The translations under genes and the position numbers were made by a program. A stretch of 51,914 nucleotides of DNA from an uncultured Bacteriovoracaceae bacterium (GTDB lineage Bacteria; Bdellovibrionota; Bacteriovoracia; Bacteriovoracales; Bacteriovoracaceae), in the NCBI GenBank assembly GCA_964352945.1, contig CAYGTU010000002.1, positions 1 to 51,914 of the forward strand. Direction: 5' to 3'. A model generated the notes under the pieces. That model was not told where the DNA came from. It saw only the letters and a list, made by a program, of their open reading frames with translations, and did no database searches. Positions within the stretch are counted from its first letter, which is position 1. Every line of letters begins with the position of its first letter. Positions 13,783 to 30,089 of this stretch are shown one piece after another.

Positions 13783-13825
13783 GGTGCCAGCAGACTATCT
13801 TGTGAACGTTGCGTTAGAACAGCAC
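13783..13825 (+). repeat. REP-like palindromic element, degenerate copy
   Basis: GGTGCCAGCAGACTATCTTGTGAACGTTGCGTTAGAACAGCAC. The left arm is intact; the right part is decayed or deleted. Confidence 0.6.
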
Positions 13826-13943
13826 ATTTCGAATTTGATATAAGTCAAATAGTGAATGAATATAAGTCAATCTTCAGATTTTAATCCCTATCATTAAACG
13901 AAATGAAATAAATTAATTTATAATAAAAAATCAAAGGGATAAT

Positions 13944-14951
13944 ATGAAATACTTAGTATTACTTTTAATTGCGTTTAATTTATTATCGGCCAAAGCTGAT
14001 GTGCCATTTACAATGGGTGGCACGTTAACTTATAAAGATAATTTTTTAGAATTTCAGTGCATAGAAGTTTTTGAAGATGAGTCCTGTTCACGAATGAGGC
14101 TTAAATATAAAGATGGAAAATCAGCTACCTTTAGAACAATAAATGTAGATAAATATAAAAAAATCGCAAGTAAGAGTCTTAGGCGTTATAGAAAAAGAAA
14201 TAATAAGGAGATAATTTTCACTACATCTCTTGTTTGTGGAGATATATCTGGTTTTTGGATGGCCGATTTAGCAGGTTTATTGGCATTTTCAGGTTGTTCA
14301 TTAGTAATGTTGAGTGTAGATGCTGTAAAACTTCCTATAGTAGTTCCTTTTTTGATTGGAAAAGGACTTGTTGGTACTTTAACACCAAAAAGATTTCTCG
14401 AAAATCTTAATACTTTACTTGATCCAAAAAACCTAGGAATGAGAAAAAACATTTCAAGAAATTCCTTTTATTCAATAAAGAATGGAATTGAAGGCGCATT
14501 AAATAAATTGAATACTCTTTCTGAGTTTGAGAAAAGAGAGAATATGGGTAAATGCGCTGTGAAATTTGTGCAAGATAAGGAGATTCAAGAAAGAGCTAGA
14601 ATCCACTTTACAAATGCAATTGAATTATCAATGAAACAAGAGCTAGCAAAAATTAATATATACCCAACAAGTACTTATGTGAAATTCGATTTTAATGAAA
14701 AGACCATTGATGGATATCACAATTTATTCTATTCCCTTGATGGTAGGGCTTCTAACTCAGAAATTTCTGTGAAATTAATAAATAGACATACTTACTCTGG
14801 TTCTGAATCGAGTATGAGAGTAGGTGAAGCCAATAGTGCACATGAAGATCGTTGTTTTATCAAAAGTGGCGAATGGGATATTTATATAAAAGATATCAAC
14901 GCAAAAACAAGATATGGTATTTTGAAAAATGTAGCGCGTTTCCGGTTTTAA
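13944..14951 (+). CDS. hypothetical secreted/membrane protein
   Basis: 335 aa. Signal peptide MKYLVLLLIAFNLLSAKA. A hydrophobic segment around residues 100-140. No recognisable domain. Confidence 0.5.
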   Translation: MKYLVLLLIAFNLLSAKADVPFTMGGTLTYKDNFLEFQCIEVFEDESCSRMRLKYKDGKSATFRTINVDKYKKIASKSLRRYRKRNNKEIIFTTSLVCGDISGFWMADLAGLLAFSGCSLVMLSVDAVKLPIVVPFLIGKGLVGTLTPKRFLENLNTLLDPKNLGMRKNISRNSFYSIKNGIEGALNKLNTLSEFEKRENMGKCAVKFVQDKEIQERARIHFTNAIELSMKQELAKINIYPTSTYVKFDFNEKTIDGYHNLFYSLDGRASNSEISVKLINRHTYSGSESSMRVGEANSAHEDRCFIKSGEWDIYIKDINAKTRYGILKNVARFRF

Positions 14952-15340
14952 AAATATGCTTGCGCAAAATAAATGATTCACTAGATAGACTAACGGCTAC
15001 TCGTAAGACAAAGCTTCGCCATAGAAAGCTAGGCTTCCTTAAGAATTTATAAATTATTTGGCATTCGCTTTCTATCATAATAAATCTAAACTACAGACCG
15101 TAAAGATAAAGTGTGCATTTTCTCAATGCTATCACTGAGGAGGGTCAGGCGAGTTGAGAACGTCACTATAGAGAACTAGGCTAAACTTCAAGGTTGGTCA
15201 CTTGCTAAAAAGACGGACTGCTAGCTAACTTCTTGTTTTGTTATTCGGCATATATATACGAGTAGATATTTATTCATTACGGCCGTTACTACAGTTTGTC
15301 GAGTCATCGGTTCCTTGCTAAATTATTATAAAGGAACAAT

Positions 15341-15775
15341 ATGGCCACAAGTTTTACTGAGTCAATTAAAGATTTACCTTCGGAGAGAAAAAAAGACTTA
15401 AAAAGGTTAAGAAAAATTCTTAAAGATAATAAACCTAGAGAAATTTCAGAAGCTTTTGAGGATGATCAGTTGATTTATCGACTTCCACTCAAATACTATC
15501 CAGATGCTTACACAAAAAGACCCCTGATGTATGCAGCACTAACCAATAGAAAGTCTTATATATCTTTAAATTTAATCTCAATTTTTAATGATAAAGTTTA
15601 CCGTCATAAATTTGCTGATAAAATTTTGAAAACAGGAGTTTGCTCTGGTGCTTCTGGTTGCTGTTATAAAATTAAATCAGTAAATGATGACCTAGAGAAA
15701 TTGCTAGAAAAAGAATTAAAGAAAATGACTACAAAAAAGTTTATTTCAATATTCAAAAAGTATCGTGAAAAATAG
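15341..15775 (+). CDS. DUF1801 (YdhG-like) domain protein
   Basis: 144 aa. Pattern KDLKRLRKILKDNKP..ISEAFEDDQLIYRLP...YISLNL resembles the DUF1801 family. Confidence 0.4.
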   Translation: MATSFTESIKDLPSERKKDLKRLRKILKDNKPREISEAFEDDQLIYRLPLKYYPDAYTKRPLMYAALTNRKSYISLNLISIFNDKVYRHKFADKILKTGVCSGASGCCYKIKSVNDDLEKLLEKELKKMTTKKFISIFKKYREK

Positions 15776-15778
15776 CTT

Positions 15779-15796
15779 ATTGTAGTAATCTGTAGT
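15779..15796 (+). repeat. 18-nt exact repeat ATTGTAGTAATCTGTAGT, copy 2
   Basis: Identical to 13637..13654. Starts 4 nt after the stop of ORF 15341..15775. Confidence 0.8.
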
Positions 15797-15836
15797 ACTT
15801 CCAAGAATCACATTAACAATTGAATTTAGTTATGAG

Positions 15837-15948
15837 ACCTCCACCATTCGTCGGAAAATGACCTCGATTGACAGTTGTACTTTCAAAAATGAAATAAACT
15901 ATGACTTCAAATCATAAACTATAGAATATGAAAAATAGTTTTGATAAT
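15837..15948 (+). repeat. 112-bp direct repeat, copy a
   Basis: ACCTCCACCATTCGTCGGAAAATGA...TAGTTTTGATAAT. 110/112 identical to 16583..16694. Contains TTGACA. Confidence 0.9.
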
Positions 15949-15975
15949 ACTCCAAGATTAATTTGGAGGAAATAA

Positions 15976-16485
15976 ATGTCTGAAATTACAGTAAACAGAA
16001 TAGAACGAATGATCTATATTATTAGAGGCCAGAAGGTCATGCTTGATAGCGATTTGGCAGAACTTTACGAGGTCGAAACGAAGATGCTCAAGCGGGCAGT
16101 TAGACGTAATATTGAACGTTTTCCAGATGACTTTATGTTCGAACTAGCTAAAGAAGAATTAGAGAATTGGAGGTACCAATTTGGCACCTCCAATTATTCT
16201 AAGATGGGTTTAAGGGTGCAACCATTTGTTTTTACTGAGCAAGGAGTGACCATGCTTTCCAGTGTTCTTCGTAGTCAAAAGGCAATTCAGGTTAATATTT
16301 CGATAGTAAGGATATTTGTTAAAATGAGAAAGTTGCTAGCTTCTGAAGAATCATTAACTAACAAATTGGAGCAGTTGGAAAAGGGCTCAGATAAGTTGTT
16401 TCGTATCGTGTTTGAAAGATTAGATAGTCTGGAGGGAAATATCCCGCTTCTTCCTAAGGACAGGAACAAAGTAGGGCTAAAGTAA
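15976..16485 (+). CDS. ORF6N-domain (KilA-N-like DNA-binding) protein
   Basis: RMIYIIRGQKVMLDSDLAELYEVETKMLKRAVRRNIERFPDDFMFEL...FVFTEQGVTMLSSVLRSQKAIQVNISIVRIF is the typical ORF6N pattern. Confidence 0.8.
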   Translation: MSEITVNRIERMIYIIRGQKVMLDSDLAELYEVETKMLKRAVRRNIERFPDDFMFELAKEELENWRYQFGTSNYSKMGLRVQPFVFTEQGVTMLSSVLRSQKAIQVNISIVRIFVKMRKLLASEESLTNKLEQLEKGSDKLFRIVFERLDSLEGNIPLLPKDRNKVGLK

Positions 16486-16582: not shown

Positions 16583-16694
16583 ACCTCCACCATTCGTCGG
16601 AAAATGATCTCGATTGACAGTTGTATTTTCAAAAATGAAATAAACTATGACTTCAAATCATAAACTATAGAATATGAAAAATAGTTTTGATAAT
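16583..16694 (+). repeat. 112-bp direct repeat, copy b
   Basis: 110/112 identical to 15837..15948. Followed 12 nt later by a REP-like element. Confidence 0.9.
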
Positions 16695-16706: not shown

Positions 16707-16758
16707 GGTACCAGTAGACTTTCAAGGAGACGGTGCTTCCACTAAAGTCTAGTGGCAC
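16707..16758 (+). repeat. REP-like palindromic element (full length)
   Basis: GGTACCAGTAGACT TTCAA GGAGACGGTGCTTCC ACTAA AGTCTAGTGGCAC. Confidence 0.9.
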
Positions 16759-17090
16759 CAAAACCGCCAAAACCGAAGATTATAGTATTGTCTTCCGTTC
16801 TATTTGTATGGGTAGTGCGCTATGAAAATATTGTCGCTGAGTTTAAGCAATATAATTTACCAGATTGGCTAAGAGACTTAGTTGGTGTTCTTAAAGTAAG
16901 TTTTGTGATTATGCTACTAAATGATAATTATCTCATAGTGCAAATTGGTTCAGGTGGTATTGTCTGTCTTATGATTGCTGCACTTTTTACTCATTTACGT
17001 ATAAAAAACCCTGTGAATAAAATGTTGCCAGCTTTAACATTGTTGATTTTCAGCTTAACTATTTTTCTTACGACTTTTAAGACAATTTAA
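16752..17090 (+). CDS. DoxX-like membrane protein, probably N-terminally truncated
   Basis: FKQYNLPDWLRDLVGVLKVSFVIMLL...GGIVCLMIAALFTHLRIKNP resembles the DoxX-like family. The only available start (GTG at 16752) lies inside the REP-like element. Confidence 0.45.
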   Translation: MAPKPPKPKIIVLSSVLFVWVVRYENIVAEFKQYNLPDWLRDLVGVLKVSFVIMLLNDNYLIVQIGSGGIVCLMIAALFTHLRIKNPVNKMLPALTLLIFSLTIFLTTFKTI

Positions 17091-17738: not shown

Positions 17739-18383
17739 ATGAGAAGAGTTGTTACATTTTGTTTAGTTTTAATATTTAATTTTAATGCTTATGCATTCGC
17801 AAAGGGACCAGAGGTCAATAATGTAGAGATGCAGAAAAAAGAATTTATCCAAAATATAGATAAGCTTATAGCTAGTGAAAAAAAGAATCCAACCTCAAAA
17901 GAAAATGTAAGAAGAAAAATTCAAAGAAATCTCGATCATGTAGAAAAAAAACAAAAAAGAATTATAAGCAAAATGAATAAACTTTCTAGACATGGAAAGC
18001 TTAAGGCGATTAACAGGAAAATAATAAAACTAAAAAAAGTTAATCCCAAAATTGAGATCCCACTCGTAACTGAAGAAAATATTGATCAAGTAATGTTTGC
18101 TCTAAACGACGCTGAGGGAATTCAGAGAATTGGAGATGAAGCACTTATGGAATATGACCGTTATAGTACTCATCTAGAATACTTAGAGAGCGTTAAAGTA
18201 AACTTTGAAAAATCAAGTGAAGCTGGTGAAGTAGCATTAACTGTTATCGTAACTTTAGCAATATGGGTAGGAATTCCATTTTTAATCTGGGGAGTACCAG
18301 CTCTTATCGTTATAGGATATTTTTTGGGCGGATTAGCGGTCATATTTGGGATTTTTGCTCTTATGGTTTCTGGTATTAGATAA
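17739..18383 (+). CDS. hypothetical Lys-rich secreted protein with C-terminal TM segments
   Basis: Signal peptide MRRVVTFCLVLIFNFNAYA. Lys-rich coiled region. Two C-terminal hydrophobic helices. Confidence 0.5.
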   Translation: MRRVVTFCLVLIFNFNAYAFAKGPEVNNVEMQKKEFIQNIDKLIASEKKNPTSKENVRRKIQRNLDHVEKKQKRIISKMNKLSRHGKLKAINRKIIKLKKVNPKIEIPLVTEENIDQVMFALNDAEGIQRIGDEALMEYDRYSTHLEYLESVKVNFEKSSEAGEVALTVIVTLAIWVGIPFLIWGVPALIVIGYFLGGLAVIFGIFALMVSGIR

Positions 18384-18386
18384 ATA

Positions 18387-18438
18387 GGTGCCAGCAGACT
18401 TTCAAGGAGACGGTGCTTCCACTAAAGTCTGCTGGCAC
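18387..18438 (+). repeat. REP-like palindromic element (full length, perfect 13-bp outer stem)
   Basis: GGTGCCAGCAGACT TTCAA GGAGACGGTGCTTCC ACTAA AGTCTGCTGGCAC. Starts 3 nt after the TAA stop. Confidence 0.95.
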
Positions 18439-18497: not shown

Positions 18498-19199
18498 ATG
18501 AATTTTTATTTCACTGCTTTATTACTGGGCCTACTCGTCAATATTAGCAACAGCTTCGCTAAGATCATTGAAGTATCTCTTTCAGAGCAAGTGTCTTTTC
18601 AAGCAGGGAATACTTATCACCTCAAGGGATCATACTTTTCAGTAGAGGTCGGAACTAACCCAGGTACTAAATGTGCTGTTCCTGGATTTAATTGTGGGAG
18701 TGGTTATACACCACCACATCCAACATTTAATATAAACTGCAATTCACATATGCCTTGCGATTATACTGTTATGACTAATGCTAAGGACAGCTCAACCGGA
18801 ATATTGTCAATTGAAAGTGAGTCTAGCTGTGAAAAAAAACAACCAGAGCAATGTTTCATGGCATTTTCCCAGCAACATAAAACAGACGAAGGTTGTATGA
18901 AAATGAAGACGCCTATGGGGAAATATTATTGCCTAGATCGGTTTAAAAATTCCCATCGTCCAGAGAACAAAGCCCTATGTAATAAGCTACCTGCTGAGAT
19001 TTATGCCCTCCGGTGGAACTGTTATTATGAGTATGCCATTCGATACAGGGACCCTTCTTTTTGTGAGAATTATTCGGAGGCAGAAACAAGTGGTAAGGAA
19101 CGATGTTGGTTAAAGATGGCCGATTTGATGAAAGATAAATCACTTTGCAAAAAAATCACTAAAGATAAATCCTATATGGAGCAGTGTCAAGAATTGTAG
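18498..19199 (+). CDS. hypothetical Cys-rich secreted protein
   Basis: Signal peptide MNFYFTALLLGLLVNISNSFA. Many Cys residues. No recognisable domain. Confidence 0.5.
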   Translation: MNFYFTALLLGLLVNISNSFAKIIEVSLSEQVSFQAGNTYHLKGSYFSVEVGTNPGTKCAVPGFNCGSGYTPPHPTFNINCNSHMPCDYTVMTNAKDSSTGILSIESESSCEKKQPEQCFMAFSQQHKTDEGCMKMKTPMGKYYCLDRFKNSHRPENKALCNKLPAEIYALRWNCYYEYAIRYRDPSFCENYSEAETSGKERCWLKMADLMKDKSLCKKITKDKSYMEQCQEL

Positions 19200-19200: not shown

Positions 19201-19252
19201 GGTGCCAGCAGACTATTTTGGAGACGGTGCTTCCACTAAAGACTCCTGGCAC
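19201..19252 (+). repeat. REP-like palindromic element (full length, variant right arm)
   Basis: GGTGCCAGCAGACT ATTTT GGAGACGGTGCTTCC ACTAA AGACTCCTGGCAC. Starts 1 nt after the TAG stop. Confidence 0.9.
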
Positions 19253-19360: not shown

Positions 19361-20338
19361 ATGAAAATACTTCTAAGCTTTATCTTTTTGATTTCTACCC
19401 TAGGGCAAACGTTTGCCTTTGATAAAGATCTCTTTAAGAATCTAGCTATTCAAAATAATATTCCAACTTCAAGTGATGGTTCTTGTTTAAAAACTCGTAG
19501 AGAGGTTATTAAGCAACTTTATAATGAAGCTGTAGAAGTAACGCCACCTGAGGGACTAAAAGAGCATATCGATTGCTTGGCGCTTCTAAAAAATTTTAAA
19601 CACGATAAAAAATTTCAAGAGTATTCACCAAGTTGGAATGATATTTTATTCGCTAAAGATCAAGGATCGAAAAGAATTGAGGGTAAAATGAATTATATGG
19701 GATTCGTCCCTCAAAAATATAGTTATGATATAAAGAGAAATGAGCTTAATGGTTATGATATTTCTGTAAATATATATGTGAAACGATGGAAGCTCTGGAG
19801 AGGTTCTAAGCTTATGAATCATTCAGTTTCTGTAAGGGATAAACACCAGAAAAGAATTTTTGATAAAATACTTGAAGAAGTTAATTCGGTTTGGAATTCA
19901 AATGAGCATAATATTCGATTTAAATTCCAAAGGGTAGAAGACCAAAATCAAGCGAATTTTTCAATAAATGTTGTTCAAAGTTTGGCGCCACTTAAATATA
20001 ACTCTAAGTGGACTTGGTTTGTAACAGACAATATTCATATAACAGATAAGCAACTCACCACGGATTTTGATTTCACTTCATCTCTAAAAACATACGCTCA
20101 CGAAGTAGGCCACATGTTGGGACTTGAAGATGAGTATAGCTTACCTAAATTCCCATTGGGTGTAGTTGCTGGATTTGTTGAAAAAAAATTAAATTCAGAT
20201 AAAAAATACAATGAATTAAAAACGGATAAATGGGTTAGAGGTTGCGATCAAACATCCATAATGTGTAAGGATCCGGGTGATAAGGTTTTTGTAAATGATT
20301 ATCACTACTATTTAATTTTAAGGCGCTATCTCAAATAG
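19361..20338 (+). CDS. secreted zinc metalloprotease-like protein (HExxHxxGxxD)
   Basis: Signal peptide. AHEVGHMLGLEDEY motif and a downstream SIMC possible Met-turn. Confidence 0.55.
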   Translation: MKILLSFIFLISTLGQTFAFDKDLFKNLAIQNNIPTSSDGSCLKTRREVIKQLYNEAVEVTPPEGLKEHIDCLALLKNFKHDKKFQEYSPSWNDILFAKDQGSKRIEGKMNYMGFVPQKYSYDIKRNELNGYDISVNIYVKRWKLWRGSKLMNHSVSVRDKHQKRIFDKILEEVNSVWNSNEHNIRFKFQRVEDQNQANFSINVVQSLAPLKYNSKWTWFVTDNIHITDKQLTTDFDFTSSLKTYAHEVGHMLGLEDEYSLPKFPLGVVAGFVEKKLNSDKKYNELKTDKWVRGCDQTSIMCKDPGDKVFVNDYHYYLILRRYLK

Positions 20339-20371
20339 GTGCCAGCAGACTTTCAAGGAGACGGTGCTTCC
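20338..20371 (+). repeat. REP-like element, left half only
   Basis: GGTGCCAGCAGACTTTCAAGGAGACGGTGCTTCC, then unrelated sequence. Its first G is the last base of the TAG stop at 20336-20338. Confidence 0.85.
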
Positions 20372-20477: not shown

Positions 20478-20772
20478 TTGTCAGAAATTACACCTAGTGA
20501 TTTTATGTTTAAATTGTCTAAAAAAGAATATGAAGATTTAAGGTTCCAATTTGGAACCTTAAAAAATGCAACAAAGGGGAGAAAATATCTTCCATCTGTA
20601 TTTACTGAATATGGGATTGTTGCACTGTCAGGAGTCTTGAATAGTAATATCGCCACTAGGGTGAATATTTCAATTGTGAGGACATTCATTTAAATGAGGC
20701 ATTTACTAGCATCAGATGAATCATTAACTAACAAACTAGAGCAACTTGAAAAGGGTTCAGATAAGTTGTTTC
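20478..20772 (+). pseudogene. decayed ORF6N-domain gene copy
   Basis: Retains the RBS and first codons (TTG TCA GAA ATT ACA versus ATG TCT GAA ATT ACA at 15976). Has an internal deletion of about 44 codons, an in-frame TAA at 20691-20693, and a 3' truncation after nucleotide-level identity with 16350-16405. Confidence 0.75.
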
Positions 20773-20845
20773 ACTAAACCTATAGAATTTTCAATCTAGG
20801 TCTTTTCTGTTGAAGAGCATTCAAGTATATATTAGAAGTAAATCA

Positions 20846-21670: not shown

Positions 21671-21677
21671 AAAAATA

Positions 21678-21728
21678 GTGCCAGCAGACTTTCATGGATA
21701 CGGTGCTTCCACTAAAGTCTGCTGGCAC
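21678..21728 (+). repeat. REP-like palindromic element (full length)
   Basis: GTGCCAGCAGACT TTCAT GGATACGGTGCTTCC ACTAA AGTCTGCTGGCAC. Confidence 0.9.
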
Positions 21729-22468: not shown

Positions 22469-23129
22469 AGATCTTGAAGAACGTATTATTTATGAAGATG
22501 AAGAATTAATTGTAGTTAACAAGCCCTATAATATGCCCTCAAGCGGACGCTCACTTGATGATGAGGACTGTTTACAGTTTTGCTTAATAAAGCGGCAGAG
22601 GGCGATGGTTTGGGCCATTCATCAGCTTGATGCGGATACAACTGGGGTAAATATTTTTGTAAAACAAAAAAAATTGGTTCCCATATATAAAAAATCTTTA
22701 GAACAAAGAAATTCTAATAAAGTCTACTTAGCAATCGTTCATGGTTCCCCCGAATGGGATGAATGCGAAGAGTTTGGATCAATTGGTATGATTGATGATC
22801 ATAGTCTTGGAATTCATCCAAATGGCAAAAGCGCCCATAGTAAATTTACTGTAATCAAAAGAGGTGTGAAGCATACTTTCATACGAGCGCAGATTTTTAG
22901 TGGGCGCACCCACCAGATACGAATTCATTTAAGCCATCGAGGACATCCAGTAGTTGGAGAATGTTGGTATATTAAACCACCTTGCAAAGAGCATATTCGT
23001 CAGGCCCTTCATTGCCATCAGATACACTTGCTTGAAATGAATTTAATTTTTGAAGCTCCCTTAGCTGAAGATTTAATTCAATTGGTGCCAGCAGACTTTC
23101 AAGGAGACGTTGCTTCCACTAAAGTCTAG
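22449..23129 (+). CDS. RluA-family pseudouridine synthase
   Basis: IIYEDEELIVVNKPYNMPS and HQLDADTTGVNIFV (HRLD..TSG-type catalytic motif); HQIRIHL. The last 15 codons and the TAG stop lie inside the REP-like element. Confidence 0.75.
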   Translation: MIPLMIKDLEERIIYEDEELIVVNKPYNMPSSGRSLDDEDCLQFCLIKRQRAMVWAIHQLDADTTGVNIFVKQKKLVPIYKKSLEQRNSNKVYLAIVHGSPEWDECEEFGSIGMIDDHSLGIHPNGKSAHSKFTVIKRGVKHTFIRAQIFSGRTHQIRIHLSHRGHPVVGECWYIKPPCKEHIRQALHCHQIHLLEMNLIFEAPLAEDLIQLVPADFQGDVASTKV

Positions 23130-23135
23130 TGGCAC
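23084..23135 (+). repeat. REP-like palindromic element (full length)
   Basis: GGTGCCAGCAGACT TTCAA GGAGACGTTGCTTCC ACTAA AGTCTAGTGGCAC. Confidence 0.9.
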
Positions 23136-23284: not shown

Positions 23285-24442
23285 ATGAAGTTAATTAAAG
23301 GGTTATTATTAGTAACAACGTTATTATCATCTTTTAACATATTTGCAATGAACAAGGCCGAATTGATAGATGCAATAGCTAAAGATGCAGGACTTAGTAA
23401 AGCTGATTCAAAGCGTGCTTTAGAAGCATATATTTCAACAACTGCCTATACAGTTAAACAAAAAGAAAAAATTTCTATATTAGGATTTGGAACTATTTCA
23501 TCAGATGGTACTTCTCCTACATTTAATCCAGATAAAAAATTAACAGTGAGTTCTTATCATCAATATTTTAAAAGTTTTTGGAGTACAGTTCTACAATTCA
23601 ATGCAGAAGAAGTATCTAGAAGTTTAAATCCATTGTATAAAGAAAAAGGTGATAAGGGTGAAATGCCAACATTTGAGGATGGTGGTTATTTCTCTTCAAT
23701 GTCTTATTATGCTGAATCATTTTCAGAAATCTTTACAAAGCTTTCTCCAACAGACATGGTTTCATCTGATAGAGAAGAAAAAGTTAAAATAGCACAAGAA
23801 TTAAATGAATATTTACAAGGTGCAGTTTCAAATCATCTAATAGGTCATGAGCTTGCACATGTTGTTCAACAATCATCATCTAAAATTATGCAAAGTTCAA
23901 CTGGAGCTTTGTTAACTCAATCTTTAGAACAAGAAAAATTTTATATTGACGAAAAAAGTGAAAACTTAGGACTTACTCAAGAACAATTTATTATGATGCA
24001 AATTCTTTTTTATGCTCAAGATTCAATTCTAGATGGTCATGTAACAGTTCTAAAAGCAAGTTCTAAAAAAGATGGACATGTTACAGTATTAAAAGCTGTA
24101 GATCATAGAGGTCATGTAACTGTACTTAAAGCTCATAGCGAAGATGGGCAGGTAACTGAACTTAAAGCGGTAGATCATAGAGGACATGTGACAGTTTTAA
24201 AAGCAGTAGATCATAGAGGACATGTAACGGTTTTAAAAGCGATGGAATCATTTAGCAATACAGCTTCAAATGTAATAGGTAAAAATGATGTTATAAGATT
24301 AGCTGAACTGGGATCATTTGCAATACCTAGAAATGCAGCTGTAACTGGTCGCAATCCACAAACAGGTAAAGAAATTAAAATCGCTGCTAAAAATGTAGTT
24401 AGATTTAAAGCAGGTTCTGAATTAAGCGGTAAAGTTAACTAA
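23285..24442 (+). CDS. chimeric HU-like protein: signal peptide + HU N-terminus + DUF4157-like HExxH segment + 12-aa tandem repeats + HU C-terminus
   Basis: Good RBS GGGGAAGGGA. MKLIKGLLLVTTLLSSFNIFA, then MNKAELIDAIAKDAGLSKADSKRALEAYI..ILGFGT (HU residues 1-50 pattern). GHELAHVVQQ. VDHRGHVTVLKA repeats. C-terminal GRNPQTGKEIKIAAKNVVRFKAGSEL (HU arm). Confidence 0.7.
   Translation: MKLIKGLLLVTTLLSSFNIFAMNKAELIDAIAKDAGLSKADSKRALEAYISTTAYTVKQKEKISILGFGTISSDGTSPTFNPDKKLTVSSYHQYFKSFWSTVLQFNAEEVSRSLNPLYKEKGDKGEMPTFEDGGYFSSMSYYAESFSEIFTKLSPTDMVSSDREEKVKIAQELNEYLQGAVSNHLIGHELAHVVQQSSSKIMQSSTGALLTQSLEQEKFYIDEKSENLGLTQEQFIMMQILFYAQDSILDGHVTVLKASSKKDGHVTVLKAVDHRGHVTVLKAHSEDGQVTELKAVDHRGHVTVLKAVDHRGHVTVLKAMESFSNTASNVIGKNDVIRLAELGSFAIPRNAAVTGRNPQTGKEIKIAAKNVVRFKAGSELSGKVN
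24032..24241 (+). repeat. in-frame 36-nt tandem repeat (about 6 units) encoding (V)DHRGHVTVLKA
   Basis: DGHVTVLKASSKK / DGHVTVLKA / VDHRGHVTVLKA / HSEDGQVTELKA / VDHRGHVTVLKA / VDHRGHVTVLKA. Confidence 0.9.
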
Positions 24443-24447
24443 TAACC

Positions 24448-24498
24448 GTGCCAGCAGACTAGCGTGGAGACGGTGCTTCAACTAAAGTCTGCTGGCAC
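24448..24498 (+). repeat. REP-like palindromic element (full length)
   Basis: GTGCCAGCAGACT AGCGT GGAGACGGTGCTTCA ACTAA AGTCTGCTGGCAC. Confidence 0.9.
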
Positions 24499-25107: not shown

Positions 25108-25313
25108 TCTACAAAATGGAGAAGTTCATGGCCTCAACCTGGGTGAGCATGGGGGATATACTGATAAGAAGAGGTCGAATTAATGTAATAAATACATGAT
25201 TCATTTAAGTGAATCATATATATAACCGGCAGGGCAGCTTTCTCCAAATTTGCTGTATAGTCTTATCAATAAAGAATTTTTATAAGACTTTTTACATAAA
25301 AAGGAGAAGCAAT

Positions 25314-25904
25314 ATGAAAAAAACAATCCTAACAATTTCACTTTTTATTATCGCATTAAATGTTTTTGGACAAAACAACAACAATGTTAATGTTGAAGTA
25401 AAAATAGGTAACGATCAGATTAAACATAAGCCAAAAACTAAAAAACCACTTAGTACACTCCTTGAAGGTAAAAATATTGAAATTATTTATACTATTTCTG
25501 CGATTGAGGATAATGTAGATGATAAGACCTTTTTAGGGATTGGCTTTAATGATATTGAGACTGATTTTTATTTATACTGTAAAAATGAGTATAATTATAG
25601 AACATTATTATCATCAGTAGAAACTCCAGAAATTAAAAAAGGTAAATCAGCATCTATGAAGTTTATTCTTCCAATTTCAGAAATCGAAATCTGTGAGAAT
25701 GATGGCGGACAAGTATCCTTTTTTGCTGATTCAAGTGATATTAGTCGTTTTAGGATAATCTTAACTGCAGACCTTATTCAGCAAATGAAAACAAAGGGGA
25801 GTGCTAAAAGAACGAAAATTTCTATTCATAGTGATCAAGCTTTTCTTTTTTGGGATATTAATACAAACAACGTAAAACTTACTTACGATATGAAAATTAT
25901 GTAG
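25314..25904 (+). CDS. hypothetical secreted protein
   Basis: ATG at 25314 follows AAGGAGA. Signal peptide MKKTILTISLFIIALNVFG. The TAG stop shares its G with the REP-like element. Confidence 0.55.
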   Translation: MKKTILTISLFIIALNVFGQNNNNVNVEVKIGNDQIKHKPKTKKPLSTLLEGKNIEIIYTISAIEDNVDDKTFLGIGFNDIETDFYLYCKNEYNYRTLLSSVETPEIKKGKSASMKFILPISEIEICENDGGQVSFFADSSDISRFRIILTADLIQQMKTKGSAKRTKISIHSDQAFLFWDINTNNVKLTYDMKIM

Positions 25905-25955
25905 GTGCCAGCAGACTATCGTGGAGACGGTGCTTCCACTAAAGTCTAGTGGCAC
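25904..25955 (+). repeat. REP-like palindromic element (full length)
   Basis: GGTGCCAGCAGACT ATCGT GGAGACGGTGCTTCC ACTAA AGTCTAGTGGCAC. Confidence 0.9.
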
Positions 25956-26490
25956 CAACTTGGCCAACTTGAATGACAACTCTTTGATCATCATTGGCCA
26001 AATACATGATTGAATCTTCGATGATACAAGTAAGCTTCATAGATTTTTCTACAAGCTTTTCTAGTGGGCCATCTTCAGTAATTTCAAGATTGAAAATATT
26101 AACTTTATCATTTTCACTAAATTTTTCTTGGATTTTTGGCAACCAATCTTCAGCTTTCTTTTTATGATAAGTATAAATACTAACTTTTTTTGATTTCCCA
26201 GCCGCTTGTTTAATTCTTTTTTCATCTGGAAGGCCAAGTTCTATCCAATGTATTATCTCTCCAGTTAAACTGGTTTGCCATAATTCGGGTTCTTCTACGT
26301 TACCTAATCCCTGTGTGAATTTTAAGTCGGCATCATGAGCATTATGTATAAAGGCTAATAGACGATACATCATACGATCTTCATTTTCAGACGGATGCTT
26401 GGCCATTGTCAGGTCAAACTCTTGATAAAAATTAAGATCAACATTGGAGATGAAAATATTTAATTTATAAATAGATGCACTAAGTGCCAT
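25939..26490 (-). CDS. yaeQ: YaeQ-family protein
   Basis: MALSASIYKLNIFISNVDLNFYQEFDLTMAKHPSENEDRMMYRLLAFIHNAH...LKFTQGLGNVEEPELW matches my recollection of the E. coli YaeQ N-terminal pattern. The last codons and the stop lie in the REP right arm. Confidence 0.8.
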   Translation of the reverse strand: MALSASIYKLNIFISNVDLNFYQEFDLTMAKHPSENEDRMMYRLLAFIHNAHDADLKFTQGLGNVEEPELWQTSLTGEIIHWIELGLPDEKRIKQAAGKSKKVSIYTYHKKKAEDWLPKIQEKFSENDKVNIFNLEITEDGPLEKLVEKSMKLTCIIEDSIMYLANDDQRVVIQVGQVGATRL

Positions 26491-26511: not shown

Positions 26512-26563
26512 GGTGCCAGCAGACTAGCGTGGAGACGGTGCATCCACTAAAGTCTAGTGGCAC
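26512..26563 (+). repeat. REP-like palindromic element (full length)
   Basis: GGTGCCAGCAGACT AGCGT GGAGACGGTGCATCC ACTAA AGTCTAGTGGCAC. Confidence 0.9.
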
Positions 26564-27273
26564 TAATACGTTAATTGTAAATCGACAACAAGATAATGAA
26601 ATTGGCTATAGGTATAAACTTTTTCATTATCTGCTCCACCATCAAGCGAGCGAGATCCAATACTTGCTTTAGTATTTTTTGTTAACGATTTTCTAAACTT
26701 TAGAGTCAGATCAATCGCCCTGCCTTGTGAGGCTGCTGCAAAATCCGCATCAGTATAGAATTGCCAGCCATCTGATAAATTCGTCTCATATGAAAAATAG
26801 AAAAGTGGAACGAGTCCAATATTATCGTATTCTTCTTTTAGTGAGCCTTGTTCAAAACGAATCAGTGCATCTCTTTGCTTTAATGTTAGTCCAATTTTTA
26901 GATTTGTAGAAAGAGAGTATACATAACCAATTCGGTAGGAGTTAAATTGATAGGTTATATCTATATCTTCATTTTTTAAGAATGTACTACCATCAAAAAC
27001 GATATCTTTTTTTGATTTACCTGAAACTTCAATACTAAACGGAGCGTAAATAATTCTAATTCCATGCTTTTGTGGGCCCTGATAATGAAGCTCCAAACGT
27101 TTTTGAGTAAATGGGCCAGAGTCAAACTGATCAAACTCGAGTTGATTTCCTGTCTTAGGAGGTATCTTTGCATCATTTCTTTGTTGCCAAACTAAGCCTG
27201 ATTCAACTTGAAGAGTTAAGCTAGCGTGTGCGTTTGATAAAAGTAAAAGTAGAATTAAATATTTCATTTTCAT
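26563..27273 (-). CDS. outer-membrane beta-barrel protein
   Basis: Signal peptide MKMKYLILLLLLSNAHA. Alternating beta-strand pattern. C-terminal LQLTY. The stop codon shares a base with the REP end. Confidence 0.6.
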   Translation of the reverse strand: MKMKYLILLLLLSNAHASLTLQVESGLVWQQRNDAKIPPKTGNQLEFDQFDSGPFTQKRLELHYQGPQKHGIRIIYAPFSIEVSGKSKKDIVFDGSTFLKNEDIDITYQFNSYRIGYVYSLSTNLKIGLTLKQRDALIRFEQGSLKEEYDNIGLVPLFYFSYETNLSDGWQFYTDADFAAASQGRAIDLTLKFRKSLTKNTKASIGSRSLDGGADNEKVYTYSQFHYLVVDLQLTY

Positions 27274-27341: not shown

Positions 27342-27393
27342 GGTGCCAGTAGACTATATTGGAGACGGTGCTTCCACTAAAGTCTAGTGGCAC
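27342..27393 (+). repeat. REP-like palindromic element (full length)
   Basis: GGTGCCAGTAGACT ATATT GGAGACGGTGCTTCC ACTAA AGTCTAGTGGCAC. Confidence 0.9.
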
Positions 27394-27407
27394 CATTTGA
27401 GAAAAAC

Positions 27408-28130
27408 ATGAAAAAATATATCATCATTTCACTTGGAAGGTTGGGACAAGCCTTCTATCATTCTGTAGTTAATCATCATCAAGTATTAGGAACGTATTGT
27501 ACTCATGCCAAGAGTTTAGATGGAGAGGTTCAATACAACTTTCAGTGTGACTCTATACCAAATGCGCTTGAAAATAGTGATGTTGTTTTATTTAACTTAA
27601 CTCCATCTACGATTAAAGATATAACATATTTTAAGAGATTTTTATCCTCAATCAAAACTAAGAAGTTCATTTTTATTAGCTCAACATCAGTTTACGGGAA
27701 TCAAGGAGAAGTCGATGAAGATACCGAAGCCCTTCCTGAAACTTCTTCAGGAAAACTTCTAAGAGAGTGTGAACAGTTACTTTTAAATTCAGACTTAGAT
27801 GTGGCTATTATTAGACCTTCAGGCTTATACAGTGATAACTTTCATCCAGGAAAATACATGGCAGGTAGGACTCTAGATATCAACGGTGCTTCTTCTGTTA
27901 ATCTAATTCACATTGATGATTTAGTGAAAATTATCAATGTGGCCAAAGAAAAAAAATATCCAATAATAAATGCTACTAATATTAATCACCCCAGTAAAAA
28001 AGAATATTATGTGAAGTATTGTGAGACAAATAATTTAGCTATTCCTAAGTTTCTAAATAAAGATATAGTTCAAGATAAAATCATTCATACTAAATACAAA
28101 GAATTTGAAGTTCAAAACGTGTTACCTTAA
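27408..28130 (+). CDS. NAD-dependent epimerase/dehydratase-like (atypical SDR) protein
   Basis: ATG at 27408 (the track GTG at 27387 lies inside the REP). FIFISSTSVYG and AIIRPSGLY resemble extended-SDR motifs. Confidence 0.5.
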   Translation: MKKYIIISLGRLGQAFYHSVVNHHQVLGTYCTHAKSLDGEVQYNFQCDSIPNALENSDVVLFNLTPSTIKDITYFKRFLSSIKTKKFIFISSTSVYGNQGEVDEDTEALPETSSGKLLRECEQLLLNSDLDVAIIRPSGLYSDNFHPGKYMAGRTLDINGASSVNLIHIDDLVKIINVAKEKKYPIINATNINHPSKKEYYVKYCETNNLAIPKFLNKDIVQDKIIHTKYKEFEVQNVLP

Positions 28131-28134
28131 AGTA

Positions 28135-28166
28135 GTGGCAGCAAGCTATCATGGGAATGCGAATTC
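28135..28166 (+). repeat. REP-like element, degenerate left half
   Basis: GTGGCAGCAAGCTATCATGGGAATGCGAATTC versus consensus GTGCCAGCAGACTATCNTGGAGACGGTGCTTCC. Confidence 0.5.
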
Positions 28167-28259
28167 ATAAATATTTATGTAGATATGTATTATGTCTAAC
28201 AATTGTAGGTTAGAATAATGACTTAAATAGTGTATGATAATCATAAAAAAGAGGGATAT

Positions 28260-28430: not shown

Positions 28431-28468
28431 ATATTTTGATACCTTTTATATATATCAGTGAAATACTT

Positions 28469-28569
28469 GTAGATGATAGACCTTTTTAGGTATTGGCTTA
28501 ATGATATTGAGACTGATTTTTATTGATACTTTAAAAACGAATCTTATTGAGCAGATAAAATCTAAGGGT
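28469..28569 (+). pseudogene. decayed, internally deleted copy of gene 25314..25904
   Basis: Nucleotide similarity to 25516-25590 and 25771-25800. 1-nt indels and a deletion of roughly 190 bp between the two blocks. Confidence 0.7.
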
Positions 28570-28642
28570 ATTTTATGCCGTCGTATACACGCTCACTTAA
28601 AAGCTTTTATAATATAAGTATTAATATTTTAAGGGAGCGTGA

Positions 28643-28924
28643 GTGAAATCAATTATTTTTGTCTTATTAATGAGTTTATCTTTATCAGTTTATGCAATGA
28701 GTGGAAAAAGCTCTGAAGATCACAAACATAATGATGAAGATTCACATTTTGAACATAAAGAACATGGACATCACACACATCACCATGAACACCATAAGGA
28801 TCATAAGCATAAACATAAAAAAGGATGTGGGCATAAGTCCACTAAGCATGACGATCATGAAGATTACAAGCACGATGAACATAATCACCATCAAGTAGAT
28901 GGGCATACTCACGATTGTGAATAG
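28643..28924 (+). CDS. secreted His-rich protein
   Basis: GTG start after AAGGGAG. Signal peptide MKSIIFVLLMSLSLSVYA. The mature part is dominated by H, K, D and E (HGHHTHHHEHHKDHKHKHKK). Confidence 0.65.
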   Translation: MKSIIFVLLMSLSLSVYAMSGKSSEDHKHNDEDSHFEHKEHGHHTHHHEHHKDHKHKHKKGCGHKSTKHDDHEDYKHDEHNHHQVDGHTHDCE

Positions 28925-28975
28925 GTGCCAGCAGACTAGCGTGGAGGCAGCGCTTCCACTAAAGTCTAGTGGCAC
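28924..28975 (+). repeat. REP-like palindromic element (full length; strengthened inner stem)
   Basis: GGTGCCAGCAGACT AGCGT GGAGGCAGCGCTTCC ACTAA AGTCTAGTGGCAC. Sits between the TAG stop of 28643..28924 and the RAYT stop 2 nt away. Confidence 0.9.
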
Positions 28976-28977
28976 TT

Positions 28978-29589
28978 CTAGAGTAAATAATCTGTCATTG
29001 GATCTTTTAGTTTTGTTAAAATAGTATTTCGTAAACCCCTTTTTACTGCTGTTAACTCTCTTTCATCTATATATTGATTTAACCATTGGGTTTTGTATTC
29101 ATCTACAAAACCCAGCTTATCAAAGAGCTGTACTGAAAAGTTTTTATTTTTATGCTTGTAGTACAAAGTACTAAAGGGATAGTCTTCACATTGCTCAACT
29201 AGGTTTGCTCGAAGTGGATTTTGGTAAACATAGCGATAGCAATTGGCAAAATATTTTTGAGATTGAATCATGCACCATTTGTATCTTCCGCCAAAAATTC
29301 TATTGATACGATCACTTTTAATTCTGATAGAAAGACTAATCATTTTATTAAATTCATACATAAAAAGATCGAGATTTTCTTCAGGTGTTTTAATGAGTAG
29401 GTGATAATGATTACTCATAAGTACGAAACTGATAATATCCACTGGGTATTTACTGTTGGCATGCTTTAGGGCGTTTTGACATATTTCCCATACTTGGGGC
29501 ATAGGTAGATCAAACCATTCTTTATTATTTGATCTCGAAGTTACATGATAAGGATAAATTGAATTTCTAATGAGTGGTTTGCGCGGCAT
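28978..29589 (-). CDS. rayT: REP-associated tyrosine transposase-like protein (IS200/IS605 Y1 HUH family)
   Basis: YPYHVTSRSNNKEWF (first strand). FVLMSNHYHLLIKTP (HUH = HYH). GGRYKWCMIQSQKYFANCYRYVYQNPLRANLV (catalytic Tyr helix). About 200 aa. Flanked by REP-like elements. Confidence 0.8.
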   Translation of the reverse strand: MPRKPLIRNSIYPYHVTSRSNNKEWFDLPMPQVWEICQNALKHANSKYPVDIISFVLMSNHYHLLIKTPEENLDLFMYEFNKMISLSIRIKSDRINRIFGGRYKWCMIQSQKYFANCYRYVYQNPLRANLVEQCEDYPFSTLYYKHKNKNFSVQLFDKLGFVDEYKTQWLNQYIDERELTAVKRGLRNTILTKLKDPMTDYLL

Positions 29590-29707
29590 GGTTCTCCTAA
29601 GTTAAATACAAAAGTGGACTCCTTTATAGAGCATTTTTGTAAATGCAATTTTTGGGAAAGATAGTAGTAGTTAATGCTTTAAAATTATTTGTTTTTTATT
29701 ATAGAGA

Positions 29708-29743
29708 GGGGAAAAGCGTCGCTTCCAATATAGTCGCTGGCGA
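29708..29743 (+). repeat. REP-like element, degenerate right half
   Basis: GGGGAAAAGCGTCGCTTCCAATATAGTCGCTGGCGAC versus consensus GGAGACGGTGCTTCCACTAAAGTCTGCTGGCAC. Confidence 0.5.
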
Positions 29744-29833
29744 CAGCATTCTTAAGCTGCAAAAGATCTGTCTAAGCAAATATCATTTAATAAATTAAAA
29801 GTTTAATATATTCTTGAATTCTAGAGGGCACTC

Positions 29834-30049
29834 ATGAATTCGTATAATAAAGGTCAAAAAGTTTTTTGGAAATGGATGGGAAGAGAAATTTTTGGCGAAA
29901 TTCTTGAAATTCATCTCGGCCCCATTGAAAAAACTCTCAAAGAAAAAATAATCAAAAGAAATGGTAGTGTTGAAAAACCGGCTTATCTAGTTAGATCAGA
30001 AGCGGGAAATCTCGCCCTTAAGTTACATACTGAATTAAGTGCCAGCTGA
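29834..30049 (+). CDS. DUF2945 (hypervirulence-associated TUDOR-like) protein
   Basis: KGQKVFWKWMGREIFGEILEI...KRNGSVEKPAYLVRSEAGNLALK fits the family pattern. The last 3 codons and the TGA stop lie in the REP left arm. Confidence 0.6.
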   Translation: MNSYNKGQKVFWKWMGREIFGEILEIHLGPIEKTLKEKIIKRNGSVEKPAYLVRSEAGNLALKLHTELSAS

Positions 30050-30089
30050 CTATCTTGGAGACGGTGTTTCCACTAAAGTCTACTGGCAC
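30039..30089 (+). repeat. REP-like palindromic element (full length, last copy)
   Basis: GTGCCAGCTGACT ATCTT GGAGACGGTGTTTCC ACTAA AGTCTACTGGCAC. Confidence 0.9.

Follow-up and report, generated by a model that had tools for sequence, protein, structure and literature searches.

A dense one-strand array of REPIN-like hairpins around a RAYT-type gene in a Bacteriovoracaceae genome

Why should a 52-base hairpin repeat stand near nearly every gene end of a 16-kb stretch of DNA, 13–15 times over and always in one direction? The first-pass annotation of this locus offered two answers, an HUH-based gene-cassette platform or an insertion hotspot for REPs on a single replication strand. Our analysis of the window (the whole stretch of 51.9 kb) favours, with a probability of about 0.7, a REPIN–RAYT (REPtron-type) system in a Bacteriovoracaceae/Halobacteriovorax-like genome, with local, one-strand multiplication near the RAYT gene; this comes close to the second answer, in which the coupling to replication is the presumptive part.

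A pattern search with up to three mismatches gave 12 matches, all on the plus strand, with none expected by chance (100 shuffles). By repeat finding and alignment, we identified 11 full 52-nt copies and two clear truncated copies (Table 1). A covariance model was built from the 11 full copies and the whole 51.9 kb was scanned with filters off. The full copies scored 75–86 bits on the plus strand and 17–40 bits less on the minus strand; the truncated copy at 13783 was missed, and nothing in the rest of the window was better than E = 0.09. Of the four partial copies originally listed two hold up, while those at 28135 and 29708, alignable by eye, are doubtful and gave no match to the model at E ≤ 10.

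Table 1. Hairpin elements (full and truncated copies are read as REPINs) and associated features; bits are covariance-model scores unless stated otherwise.
Feature	Position	Strand	Remarks
Truncated REPIN, left edge of array	13783..13816	+	5' arm GGTGCCAGCAGACT (exact 14-nt head) and loop start ATCTTG, then decayed
112-nt direct repeat, left copy	15837..15948	+	98% identical; flanks ORF6N gene
ORF6N-domain gene	15976..16485	+	Pfam ORF6N, 117.9 bits
112-nt direct repeat, right copy	16583..16694	+	Ends 12 nt ahead of element 16707
Full REPIN hairpin	16707..16758	+	5' arm variant GGTACCAGTAGACT; 76.1 bits (+), 40.6 bits (-)
Full REPIN hairpin	18387..18438	+	Perfect 13-bp arms; 3 nt past stop of 17739-18383; 82.6 bits
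Full REPIN hairpin	19201..19252	+	1 nt past stop of 18498-19199; 75.2 bits
Truncated REPIN, first 34 nt	20338..20371	+	First G is last base of TAG stop of 19361-20338; 23.9 bits
Full REPIN hairpin	21677..21728	+	Start 21677/8; 6 nt past stop of 20810-21670; 79.4 bits
Full REPIN hairpin	23084..23135	+	Second RluA-like ORF (22449-23129) extends 46 nt inside; 76.3 bits
Full REPIN hairpin	24447..24498	+	Start 24447/8; 4 nt past stop of HU-domain gene 23285-24442; 77.6 bits
Full REPIN hairpin, convergent genes either side	25904..25955	+	Supplies G of TAG stop of 25209-25904; 9-nt stutter duplication on 3' flank; 85.6 bits
Full REPIN hairpin	26512..26563	+	Last base within stop codon of minus-strand OMP gene 26563-27273; 81.6 bits
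Full REPIN hairpin, divergent intergenic region	27342..27393	+	5' arm C->T restores one pair with CTAG 3' arm; 81.4 bits
Degenerate 5' half, doubtful	28135..28175	+	4 nt past stop of 27387-28130; alignment by eye
Full REPIN hairpin	28924..28975	+	2 nt from RAYT stop; downstream inverted REP of RAYT unit; 75.4 bits
RAYT/TnpAREP-type Y1 HUH gene (predicted), 203 aa	28978..29589	-	HUH = H61-Y-H63
Decayed REP upstream of RAYT	29708..29760	-	GTCGCCAGCGACTATATTGGAAGCGACGC on minus strand; likeness by eye to upstream REPs of orthologues, weak
Full REPIN hairpin, right edge of array	30038..30089	+	Start 30038/9; Hva1_TUDOR ORF 29834-30049 ends inside; rlmN next; 76.4 bits

Pattern search, alignment and covariance model thus agree with the first-pass annotation that the array (13.8–30.1 kb, all copies on the plus strand) is co-oriented and locally confined. 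All 13 orientable copies are co-directed (two-sided p ~2e-4), and confinement of 15 points to 31% of the window has an arithmetic probability of ~1e-6 under a uniform model, a locality that refers to these 52 kb only, in an organism that turned up in a single sample. Four genes do lie on the minus strand, as first noted, out of a total of ~22 ORFs, not ~18. The copies are ~87% identical, and therefore do not represent a recent burst; within the window they differ at 3–11 of 53 positions. Their similarity falls with distance inside the window (Spearman 0.29, permutation p = 0.02).

The copies share a fold. In the 13-bp outer stem 87% of cells pair, compared with 24–42% when the partners are slid, and as DNA the hairpins fold with energies between -11 and -18.5 kcal/mol (z between -3.4 and -6.3). 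There is very little covariation within the window: a single pair has changed on both its sides. On each strand the stem GCAGACT/AGTCT(G/A)(C/G) comes after the family's 5' tag, GGTGCCA. A conserved 2-nt GCAG/CTAG mismatch (pair 11-47) was found in six of the 11 full copies and is present in the UBA6261 genome too; it parallels the stem mismatch that TnpAREP requires for binding (PMC3333891).

The ORF at 28978-29589, inside the array between the decayed REP and a full REPIN, is predicted to encode a Y1 HUH enzyme of RAYT/TnpAREP type. It matched Pfam Y1_Tnp with 26.6 bits (cut-off 23), in keeping with its initial description as IS200-like, and NCBIfam REP_Tyr_transpos with 72.6 bits (E = 3e-20), just missing the model cut-off of 80; the match to the E. 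coli TnpAREP structure (PDB 4er8) was weak (E = 3.6e-5, 26.9 bits). From residues invariant among 37 homologues, the catalytic tyrosine is probably Y120, with N124 four residues later. The protein lies on a divergent branch that has a conserved C-terminal extension of ~60 aa.

Related genomes link this gene to the hairpins. RAYT orthologues at three loci (L002, L003 and L007) are 61–76% identical and lie between inverted repeats of 38–44 nt that begin with GGTGCCAGCAGACT (L002, L003) or GGTGCCACCTACC (L007); the shared head occurs on both sides of the L076 RAYT and on the upstream side only at L004. In addition, hairpins with the same arms and with varying loops (4–26 nt) stand free across numerous contigs in at least six Bacteriovoracaceae/Oligoflexales genomes. 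It is thus the arms that are conserved and presumably recognised, and because the relatives' RAYTs carry inverted REPs with the same head while same-arm hairpins stand free there, we classify the 52-nt element as a REP doublet in one hairpin, i.e. a REPIN. Together with the enzyme's motifs and its model and structure matches, the inverted GGTGCCAGCAGACT-headed REPs around the orthologues uphold the original view of a REP–RAYT system.

Smaller arrays with one element per gene junction were also seen at the RAYTs of UBA6261 (five hairpins in 5.5 kb) and L090 (~10 hairpins in 6 kb). Over 13 loci (±10 kb), additional REPs numbered 9, 6, 2, 3 and 0 per 2-kb bin with increasing distance from the RAYT, a count that L090 dominates and in which L081 and L083 have identical positions. 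Adjacent hairpins have opposite orientations in some relatives (L027), so co-orientation is not universal. There was no sign in the relatives that the RAYT gene transposes itself.

It is most likely that the RAYT spreads the window's hairpin repeats. The single-copy enzyme would bind the folded single-stranded hairpin, and one strand would be cut and rejoined. This would take place when the strand lies exposed as lagging-strand template; given the positive GC skew throughout the array, that is probably the plus strand here. Action on one exposed strand would give new copies a shared orientation. These would insert mostly near the donor and the RAYT gene, giving a local array and not a dispersed population. 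A preference for A/T-rich targets, with insertion between ...ATA(G) and G, and purifying selection against intragenic insertions would place copies at, or overlapping, stop codons. Once inserted, the hairpins may also terminate or stabilise transcripts.

The closest known systems are REPIN–RAYT systems or REPtrons (E. coli TnpAREP–BIME, the REPINs of Pseudomonas fluorescens SBW25, REPtrons Ma and Mb of Marinomonas MWYL1), and the array is an unusually dense example of this already known type. As in REPtrons, a lone Y1 HUH gene lies between inverted cognate palindromes (PMC8266576, PMC3116915, PMC3333891), and the extragenic hairpin doublets are non-autonomous, have an imperfect stem in which a mismatch is conserved, and cluster beside the RAYT. 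In contrast to REPtrons, the tag is GGTGCC(A) instead of the canonical GT[AG]G, the two REPs share one stem so that each strand carries tag plus hairpin, all copies are co-oriented and interleave single genes over 16 kb where BIME/REPIN clusters are sub-kilobase, and the RAYT, on its divergent branch with the C-terminal extension, matches E. coli TnpAREP weakly. Density near tnpAREP has already been published: in Marinomonas, REPs are concentrated beside the gene, which was interpreted as multiplication in its vicinity (PMC8266576). REPIN clusters adjoin RAYTs, and the orientation of tandem REP arrays differs between two origin-equidistant genome regions (PMC3116915). The system also resembles IS200/IS605 elements and their miniature derivatives in its subterminal hairpins and in its presumed Y1 HUH chemistry, which acts on folded single strands (PMC6006769). 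Their strand-specific insertion beside a short target, tied to the lagging-strand template, as in IS608 and ISDra2 (PMC6006769), would have its counterpart here. Unlike in IS200/IS605, there is one enzyme gene in 52 kb, no TnpB, and no separate left-end and right-end sequences.

Placement against genes is close: 11 of the 15 copies overlap, or lie within 6 nt of, the stop codon of a flanking gene. The clearest case is YaeQ (25939-26490, minus strand), where the native ...TKNL end is lost and the last five residues (GATRL) and the stop are encoded by the 25904 element; this looks like an element reaching a resident gene, not a gene bringing its own site. Two other ORFs also terminate within elements. 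REPs abutting stop codons are likewise already published, and REP termini are known to supply TAG stops (PMC3733652). As in the GTAG-tagged REPs of Di Nocera et al. (2013), the elements adjoin or run into the ends of ORFs and in some cases give the stop or last residues, but the TAG lies just outside, or overlaps, the element's first G, and not within a GTAG tag.

Such placement could also reflect host selection of the elements as transcript 3'-end stabilisers, insulators, translation-coupled regulators or nucleoid-protein binding sites, with the RAYT a historical disseminator only and the local density due to selection on the gene neighbourhood. We regard this as unlikely. RNA hairpins are strong on either strand (-28 to -32 kcal/mol), promoter-like sites shortly past several elements (18450, 24503, 27397) fit one transcription unit per interval, and REPs have reported roles in mRNA turnover and termination (PMC3479197, PMC3733652). 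However, none of the elements coincides with a T-tract terminator, terminator-like and promoter-like sites are no more frequent than chance predicts, an Rfam search gave no match, and the 27342 copy lies in a divergent promoter region. Host selection also leaves unexplained the strict DNA-strand co-orientation whatever the gene strand, and the lack of copies in the other 35 kb.

More doubtful is an HUH-driven gene-cassette array, a shuffling platform with a layout analogous to an integron, in which co-oriented neighbouring hairpins would act as IS200/IS605 left and right ends and the RAYT would cut out the gene between them in the form of a single-stranded circle, to be reinserted beside another hairpin. 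Known Y1 chemistry, established for IS608, would suffice, so the idea is mechanistically possible, and it fits the spacing of one element to each gene or pair of genes, the strict co-orientation and the tolerance of minus-strand genes. An ORF6N gene lies between two hairpins both in UBA6261 (L032) and within our array, where a 112-nt direct repeat surrounds it and a decayed ORF6N copy (~20480-20780) abuts the truncated element at 20338. The YaeQ neighbours are wholly different in the two closest available relatives, although such synteny loss is uninformative at 77–81% protein identity. Against this, ORF6N is the only cassette found to be common to different arrays and, as an operon partner of the RAYT, is tied to it independently, the GC content of the array is no different from that of its flanks, and gene 3' ends, that of YaeQ included, are overwritten by elements. 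The intervening genes are mutually unrelated, and several of them are judged from their similarity to be ordinary and vertically inherited: YaeQ is 77–84% identical to Halobacteriovorax-group orthologues, and both RlmN and RluA are of housekeeping type. Their description as mostly orphan signal-peptide genes was overstated, as only ~9 of the 22 ORFs are without any Pfam hit. With no tyrosine integrase among the ~54 scanned ORFs and no attC signature found either, the integron-like platform of the first-pass annotation finds no support in the window.

A classical integron attC array, or a tandem duplication of gene-plus-repeat units, is scarcely credible and is refuted at window level. The likeness stops at a superficial layout, in which folded hairpins resembling recombination sites follow almost each gene in one orientation, with strand-asymmetric stems and a few reversed genes, whereas the window has no IntI, attI, R/L boxes or evidence of cassette exchange, its enzyme belongs to another superfamily, the ~54 scanned ORFs include no tyrosine integrase or recombinase (two short serine-recombinase 'Recombinase' domain fragments outside the array were the only related hits), the hairpin ends read GGTGCC...GGCAC without R'/R'' boxes (RYYYAAC/GTTRRRY), and paralogy among the intervening genes is limited to two RluA-like genes at 24% identity.

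As a side observation, ORF6N genes pair with the window's RAYT family: in other genomes, members of the ORF6N gene family lie directly upstream of RAYT homologues, and the gene in our array contains an internal REP-like palindrome, TTGGAGGTACCAA-T-TTGGCACCTCCAA, at ~16160-16200, with a covariance-model match at 16170-16190.

A mismatch-tolerant search of the window with the first 34 nt of the consensus of the 52-nt palindromic element returned 12 sites on the + strand, where none was expected by chance, and the 13-nt arm alone was found at 24 sites versus 0.35 expected, which corresponds to two arms per hairpin. The copies, named here by their start coordinates, were sorted by repeat finding and by an alignment of 15 sequences. 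A covariance model was then built from the full copies and run over the whole window with the filters off. Full copies scored 75-86 bits on the + strand, exceeding their score on the - strand by 17-40 bits; the fragment at 20338 gave 23.9 bits, and no further site better than E=0.09 was detected in the 52-kb window. Given these scores, the single orientation of the 11 full copies and their confinement to 13.8-30.1 kb are real within the window, thus confirming the array described in the first-pass annotation. The four partial or degenerate copies reported there held up in part: two of them are unambiguous and two are weak.

Coordinates of the repeats, genes and loci discussed in the text (window positions unless a locus of another genome is named)
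Feature	Number	Position or locus	Strand	Basis
Full 52-nt copies	11	16707, 18387, 19201, 21677, 23084, 24447, 25904, 26512, 27342, 28924, 30038	+	alignment
Unambiguous truncated copies	2	13783, 20338		alignment
Weak degenerate candidates	2	28135, 29708		alignment
RAYT gene	1	28978-29589	-	
Intact ORF6N gene	1	15976-16485	+	
112-nt direct repeat around ORF6N	2	15837-15948, 16583-16694		
Decayed second ORF6N	1	20480-20780		
ORF6N palindromes and upstream REPs		window ~16160-16200, 20537-20563; L032 ~3340-3370; L156 9267-9492; L152 1786-1890		
Loci with adjacent ORF6N and RAYT	6	L146, L147, L149, L152, L153, L156		
Stutters, window	2	25956-25973, 16759-16775		
Stutters, relatives		L020, L032, L044/L074, L048, L022, L072, L080, L090, L094		
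Loci sharing the REP head, Planctomycetota/Phycisphaerales and bin Loclat_bin-07423		L009, L017, L024, L026, L028, L030, L051, L055, L056, L067		

Identity among the copies in the window is about 87% (they differ at 3-11 of 53 nt), and their similarity falls weakly with distance (Spearman 0.29, p=0.02). The loop variants are grouped by position: those to the left have TTCAA and those to the right AGCGT. This pattern of divergence and grouping fits what slow local copying would leave, not a recent burst. An exact 21-mer of the element, ACGGTGCTTCCACTAAAGWCT, had 0 matches in genome_contigs and 0 in metagenome_contigs. Exact-protein look-ups for YaeQ (encoded on the minus strand at 25939-26490, at element 25904) and for the 33533 ORF gave no match. 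Those for the RAYT, the Y1 HUH enzyme encoded inside the array, and for the 18498 ORF matched only short contigs of the same sample, ERR3534981, which are collinear with the window and whose breaks fall at elements.

On folding, each strand of the element, whether as DNA or as RNA, gave an outer stem of 13 bp that encloses a small inner stem-loop, and 87% of the alignment cells paired, versus 24-42% with slid partners. Covariation within the window is minimal and too weak to support the fold beyond the palindromic sequence itself. In 6 of the 11 full copies a GCAG 5' arm faces a CTAG 3' arm (pair 11-47), which leaves two nucleotides mismatched inside the stem; hairpins of this hybrid form are also present in the UBA6261 genome (L032). 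In E. coli, binding by TnpAREP requires a stem mismatch (PMC3333891). At 16707-16758 and 27342-27393 a C to T change converts the GCAG of the 5' arm to GTAG and restores one of the two mismatched pairs against CTAG, the only both-sides pair change in the array.

In a pattern scan of species-representative genomes, at least six Bacteriovoracaceae/Oligoflexales MAGs proved to carry free-standing hairpins with the arms of the window element (GGTGCCAGCAGACTT...AAGTCTGCTGGCACC); each genome had them on 3-6 contigs, and the loops measured 4-26 nt. Conserved arms with drifting loops are as expected if the enzyme recognises the arms. Because the relatives carry both REP-flanked RAYT orthologues and these same-arm hairpins, the 52-mer is identified as a REPIN, in which two overlapping inverted REPs share one common stem. 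The element is palindromic, as REPtron/REPIN elements are, although the conserved 5' tetranucleotide tag of these systems, GT[AG]G at the foot of the palindrome, is replaced here and in the relatives by (A)GGT(G/A/T)CC, giving GTGC, GTAC or GTTC. Other identities were also considered. A scan of the window at Rfam gathering scores gave no match, and a tRNA/tmRNA scan was negative. An intrinsic terminator was rejected as well: none of 8 terminator-like sites coincided with an element, and the number of such sites was at chance level. The string GTGCCAGCAG matches the start of the 16S 515F primer site; the likeness was dismissed as coincidence, and the window contains no rRNA.

The Y1_Tnp HMM of Pfam, suggested at first pass as a check on the RAYT ORF, matched it at 26.6 bits, above the cut-off of 23, and NCBIfam REP_Tyr_transpos (REP-associated tyrosine transposase) gave 72.6 bits (E=3e-20), slightly short of its cut-off of 80. 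The sole solved-structure match was E. coli TnpAREP (4er8, E=3.6e-5). H61-Y-H63, Y120 and N124 are invariant or nearly so among 37 homologues and align with regions of 4er8, and the protein has the HUH motif and a predicted catalytic Tyr with a polar N four positions downstream that mark RAYT/TnpAREP enzymes. A protein search returned 583 homologues, the best 120 of which are 54-76% identical (about 200 aa). The few that have names are labelled as transposases from Bacteriovorax or Bacteriovoracaceae, and for YaeQ the orthologues indicate the Halobacteriovorax group. In contrast to the repeated, mobile transposase units of IS200/IS605, the RAYT is single in the window, and its homologues, 55-76% identical, mostly occur one per contig across many samples. 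The RAYT belongs to a divergent branch, in Bdellovibrionota. The HUH and Tyr residues, the Y1_Tnp match and the inverted REPs flanking orthologues bear out the earlier view that this is a REP-RAYT system.

The closest RAYT orthologues (L002, L003 and L007) are bracketed by inverted repeats of 38-44 nt, for which the outermost sequence is GGTGCCAGCAGACT at L002 and L003, and GGTGCCACCTACC at L007. A GGTGCCAGCAGACT-type head lies on both sides of the RAYT in L076 and only upstream of it in L004. For the window RAYT, the downstream neighbour is a full REPIN at a distance of 2 nt, and the upstream one is a decayed REP some 130-170 nt away. This REP-RAYT-REP bracketing with inverted flanks, clear in the orthologous loci, is the standard REPtron arrangement. 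In UBA6261, five hairpins lie in 5.5 kb around the RAYT at successive gene junctions; L090 has about 10 short palindromes in 6 kb around its RAYT, and most other RAYT loci have two flanking REPs and 0-2 extra copies. When 13 RAYT loci with 10-kb flanks were combined, the extra copies per 2-kb bin outward numbered 9, 6, 2, 3 and 0, a count dominated by L090 and including two loci, L081 and L083, with identical positions. The window array is the extreme of a continuum among RAYT loci. Similar behaviour has been described elsewhere: in Marinomonas MWYL1 the REPs are 'concentrated in proximity' to tnpAREP, which was read as multiplication in the vicinity (PMC8266576), and in SBW25 REPIN clusters adjoin each RAYT, and the tandem REP arrays of two genome regions that lie equally far from the origin face opposite ways (PMC3116915).

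We also looked at relatives with REP singlets in place of full hairpins (L094, L099 and L122). The copies left of the RAYT point nearly all one way and those on the right the opposite way, each singlet matching the RAYT-proximal REP of its own side, with the exception of two outlying copies in L122. This side-specific orientation hints at outward, one-ended copying from each end. Additionally, Planctomycetota/Phycisphaerales MAGs of 65-69% GC contain an abundant REP with the same head and stem as that of the window (GGTGCCAGCAGACTTCAGTCTGCTG / GGTGCCAGCAGACTTCAGTCTGCTGAAC), often in tight alternating clusters. Near one of these loci, L028 (the unclassified bin Loclat_bin-07423), there is a RAYT whose alignment with the window RAYT shows only 27% identity over 101 residues. 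The recognition sequence is common to different phyla despite very divergent enzymes.

The best explanation of the array's layout is that the elements multiplied locally and on one strand around the RAYT, a behaviour which has the published precedents and the graded counterparts in relatives described here. Since the array has a positive GC skew throughout and the + strand carries most of the genes, this strand is probably the lagging-strand template, that is, the one that would be exposed as single-stranded DNA for short periods. The lagging-strand template is where excision and insertion of IS200/IS605 relatives take place (PMC6006769). Strand-specific action on this template would give a single orientation per replichore; the target preference would be for A/T-rich sequence, often coinciding with TAA or TAG stops, and intragenic insertions would then be purged by selection. 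We infer all three of the components, namely the action of the RAYT on the hairpins, the coupling to replication and the preference for action in cis. As an interpretation, the first-pass annotation was half right; the second alternative that it offered, a hotspot of insertion on one replication strand, comes close to the explanation preferred here.

Eleven of the 15 copies lie at most 6 nt from a stop codon or overlap one. In YaeQ, the native C-terminal ...TKNL is lost; five element-encoded residues follow, and then a stop within the element. REPs that abut ORFs and supply TAG stops have already been reported (Di Nocera et al., PMC3733652). On the 5' side, GGTGCC is preceded by a loose consensus, which is (A)ATA(G) for the window copies and AAA or ATA for those of relatives; the 3' flanks of the window copies are not conserved. 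We also noticed short tandem duplications, here called stutters, directly 3' of two window hairpins and of many hairpins of relatives. They comprise the last 2-6 bases of the element and 5-12 nt of flank (for example, GGCACCTACTCCA GCACCTACTCCA); the stutter in YaeQ encodes QVG-QVG. The stutters may be traces left by cutting and rejoining, or they may come from slippage at the hairpin.

Another gene inside the array, ORF6N, has homologues of 48-51% identity directly upstream of RAYT genes, at a distance of about 17 nt and on the same strand, and in UBA6261 a 54%-identical homologue lies between two REPIN hairpins. In the window gene, WRYQFGTS is coded by the DNA palindrome TTGGAGGTACCAA-T-TTGGCACCTCCAA, the arms of which are the outer 8 nt of the REPIN arms; in UBA6261, LKSQIATSK is coded by a perfect 27-nt palindrome. 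A REP-like palindrome codes the ORF6N motif (K/R)SQ(I/F)(A/G)TS, and in four aligned RAYT-adjacent ORF6N genes (L147, L149, L152 and L156) an in-frame deletion of 11 aa (33 nt) removes exactly the palindrome segment. REPs (GTCAAAGGTCGCAAATTGCGACCTTTGAC) are clustered just upstream of the L152 and L156 operons and have a 15-nt core, GTCGCAAATTGCGAC, in common with the UBA6261 palindrome. Taken together, the adjacency to RAYT, the exact deletion and the common core suggest that ORF6N is a partner of the RAYT family, in what looks like a conserved pairing, and that one REP family was derived from, or excised from, the ORF6N palindrome. No joint mention of ORF6N and IS200 was found in the literature searched. 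The direct repeats that bracket the intact ORF6N are 98% identical, and the right one ends 12 nt before element 16707; the decayed second ORF6N follows the truncated element 20338 and shows 78% identity over its best 131-nt stretch.

The first-pass annotation had also proposed a gene-cassette platform, integron-like in layout, in which hairpin-bounded genes are moved by the RAYT; we regard this as quite improbable. It is chemically plausible, as hairpins that share one orientation could act as a left end and a right end, and the ORF6N unit would be the only candidate cassette, being hairpin-bounded in two genomes and, in the window, duplicated and flanked by the fresh 112-nt direct repeat. However, ORF6N is the sole hairpin-bounded unit common to more than one genome, resident gene ends are overwritten by the element, as in YaeQ, and the GC content of the array is that of its flanks. 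The intervening genes are unrelated to one another; RluA-type synthases and YaeQ are among them, and rlmN lies at the right edge. In the closest YaeQ contexts available, L157 (77%) and L158 (81%), the neighbours are not shared and there are no elements, which is uninformative at such divergence. It would be a long shot that the REPINs are interchangeable IS200/IS605-like ends and that the RAYT, perhaps aided by ORF6N, excises genes and reinserts them as single-stranded circles; if true, predatory bacteria would possess a gene-cassette array that is HUH-based. Membership among integrons proper was rejected because integrase and attC boxes are both missing, which also weighs against cassette movement. 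As first noted, there is no tyrosine integrase in view: no Phage_integrase-type match was obtained among about 54 window ORFs scanned, whereas an integron has IntI with attI at one end of its array, and the hairpins end in GGTGCCAGCAGACT ... AGTCTRSTGGCAC instead of the R''-L''/L'-R' boxes (RYYYAAC ... GTTRRRY). An origin of the array by tandem duplication was ruled out because the intervening genes are not paralogues.

On present evidence, the array does not reveal a new class of gene-capture machinery, and REPIN-RAYT systems as a kind are already known; what is notable here is the density of the array, its strict co-orientation and the link to ORF6N. On the question of how REPs and REPINs spread, this lineage preserves an unusually clear picture of spread at close range: the array is dense, has one orientation and is centred on the RAYT, relatives have graded versions of it, junction footprints are visible as stutter duplications and overwritten gene ends, and a constant recognition arm is combined with variable loops. 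It would be a good system for testing replication-coupled, cis-biased REPIN multiplication, and the pairing of ORF6N with RAYT is a new lead on an accessory factor and on the origin of REP sequences.

Several other repeats were seen in the window. To the left of the array there are two paralogous gene pairs (7684-8330 and 12195-12703, minus strand), 49-69% identical in protein, each with a 53-aa membrane-like ORF and a 116-162-aa ORF in which an HTH is accompanied by no more than the beginning of the serine-recombinase 'Recombinase' domain. A separate 74-nt repeat of 96% identity lies at 8358-8431 and 10006-10079. Within the array, the gene at 23285-24442 contains at least four in-frame 36-nt tandem repeats (24074-24240); its 385-aa product has two HU-type (Bac_DNA_binding) stretches and a signal-peptide-like N-terminus. 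In addition, two different intervals of the array have in common a 66-nt sequence (80% identity), which may be a promoter or leader that they share. One copy, 25531-25596, falls within the called ORF 25209-25904, for which the called start is probably wrong; the other, 28483-28548, is upstream of 28643-28924.
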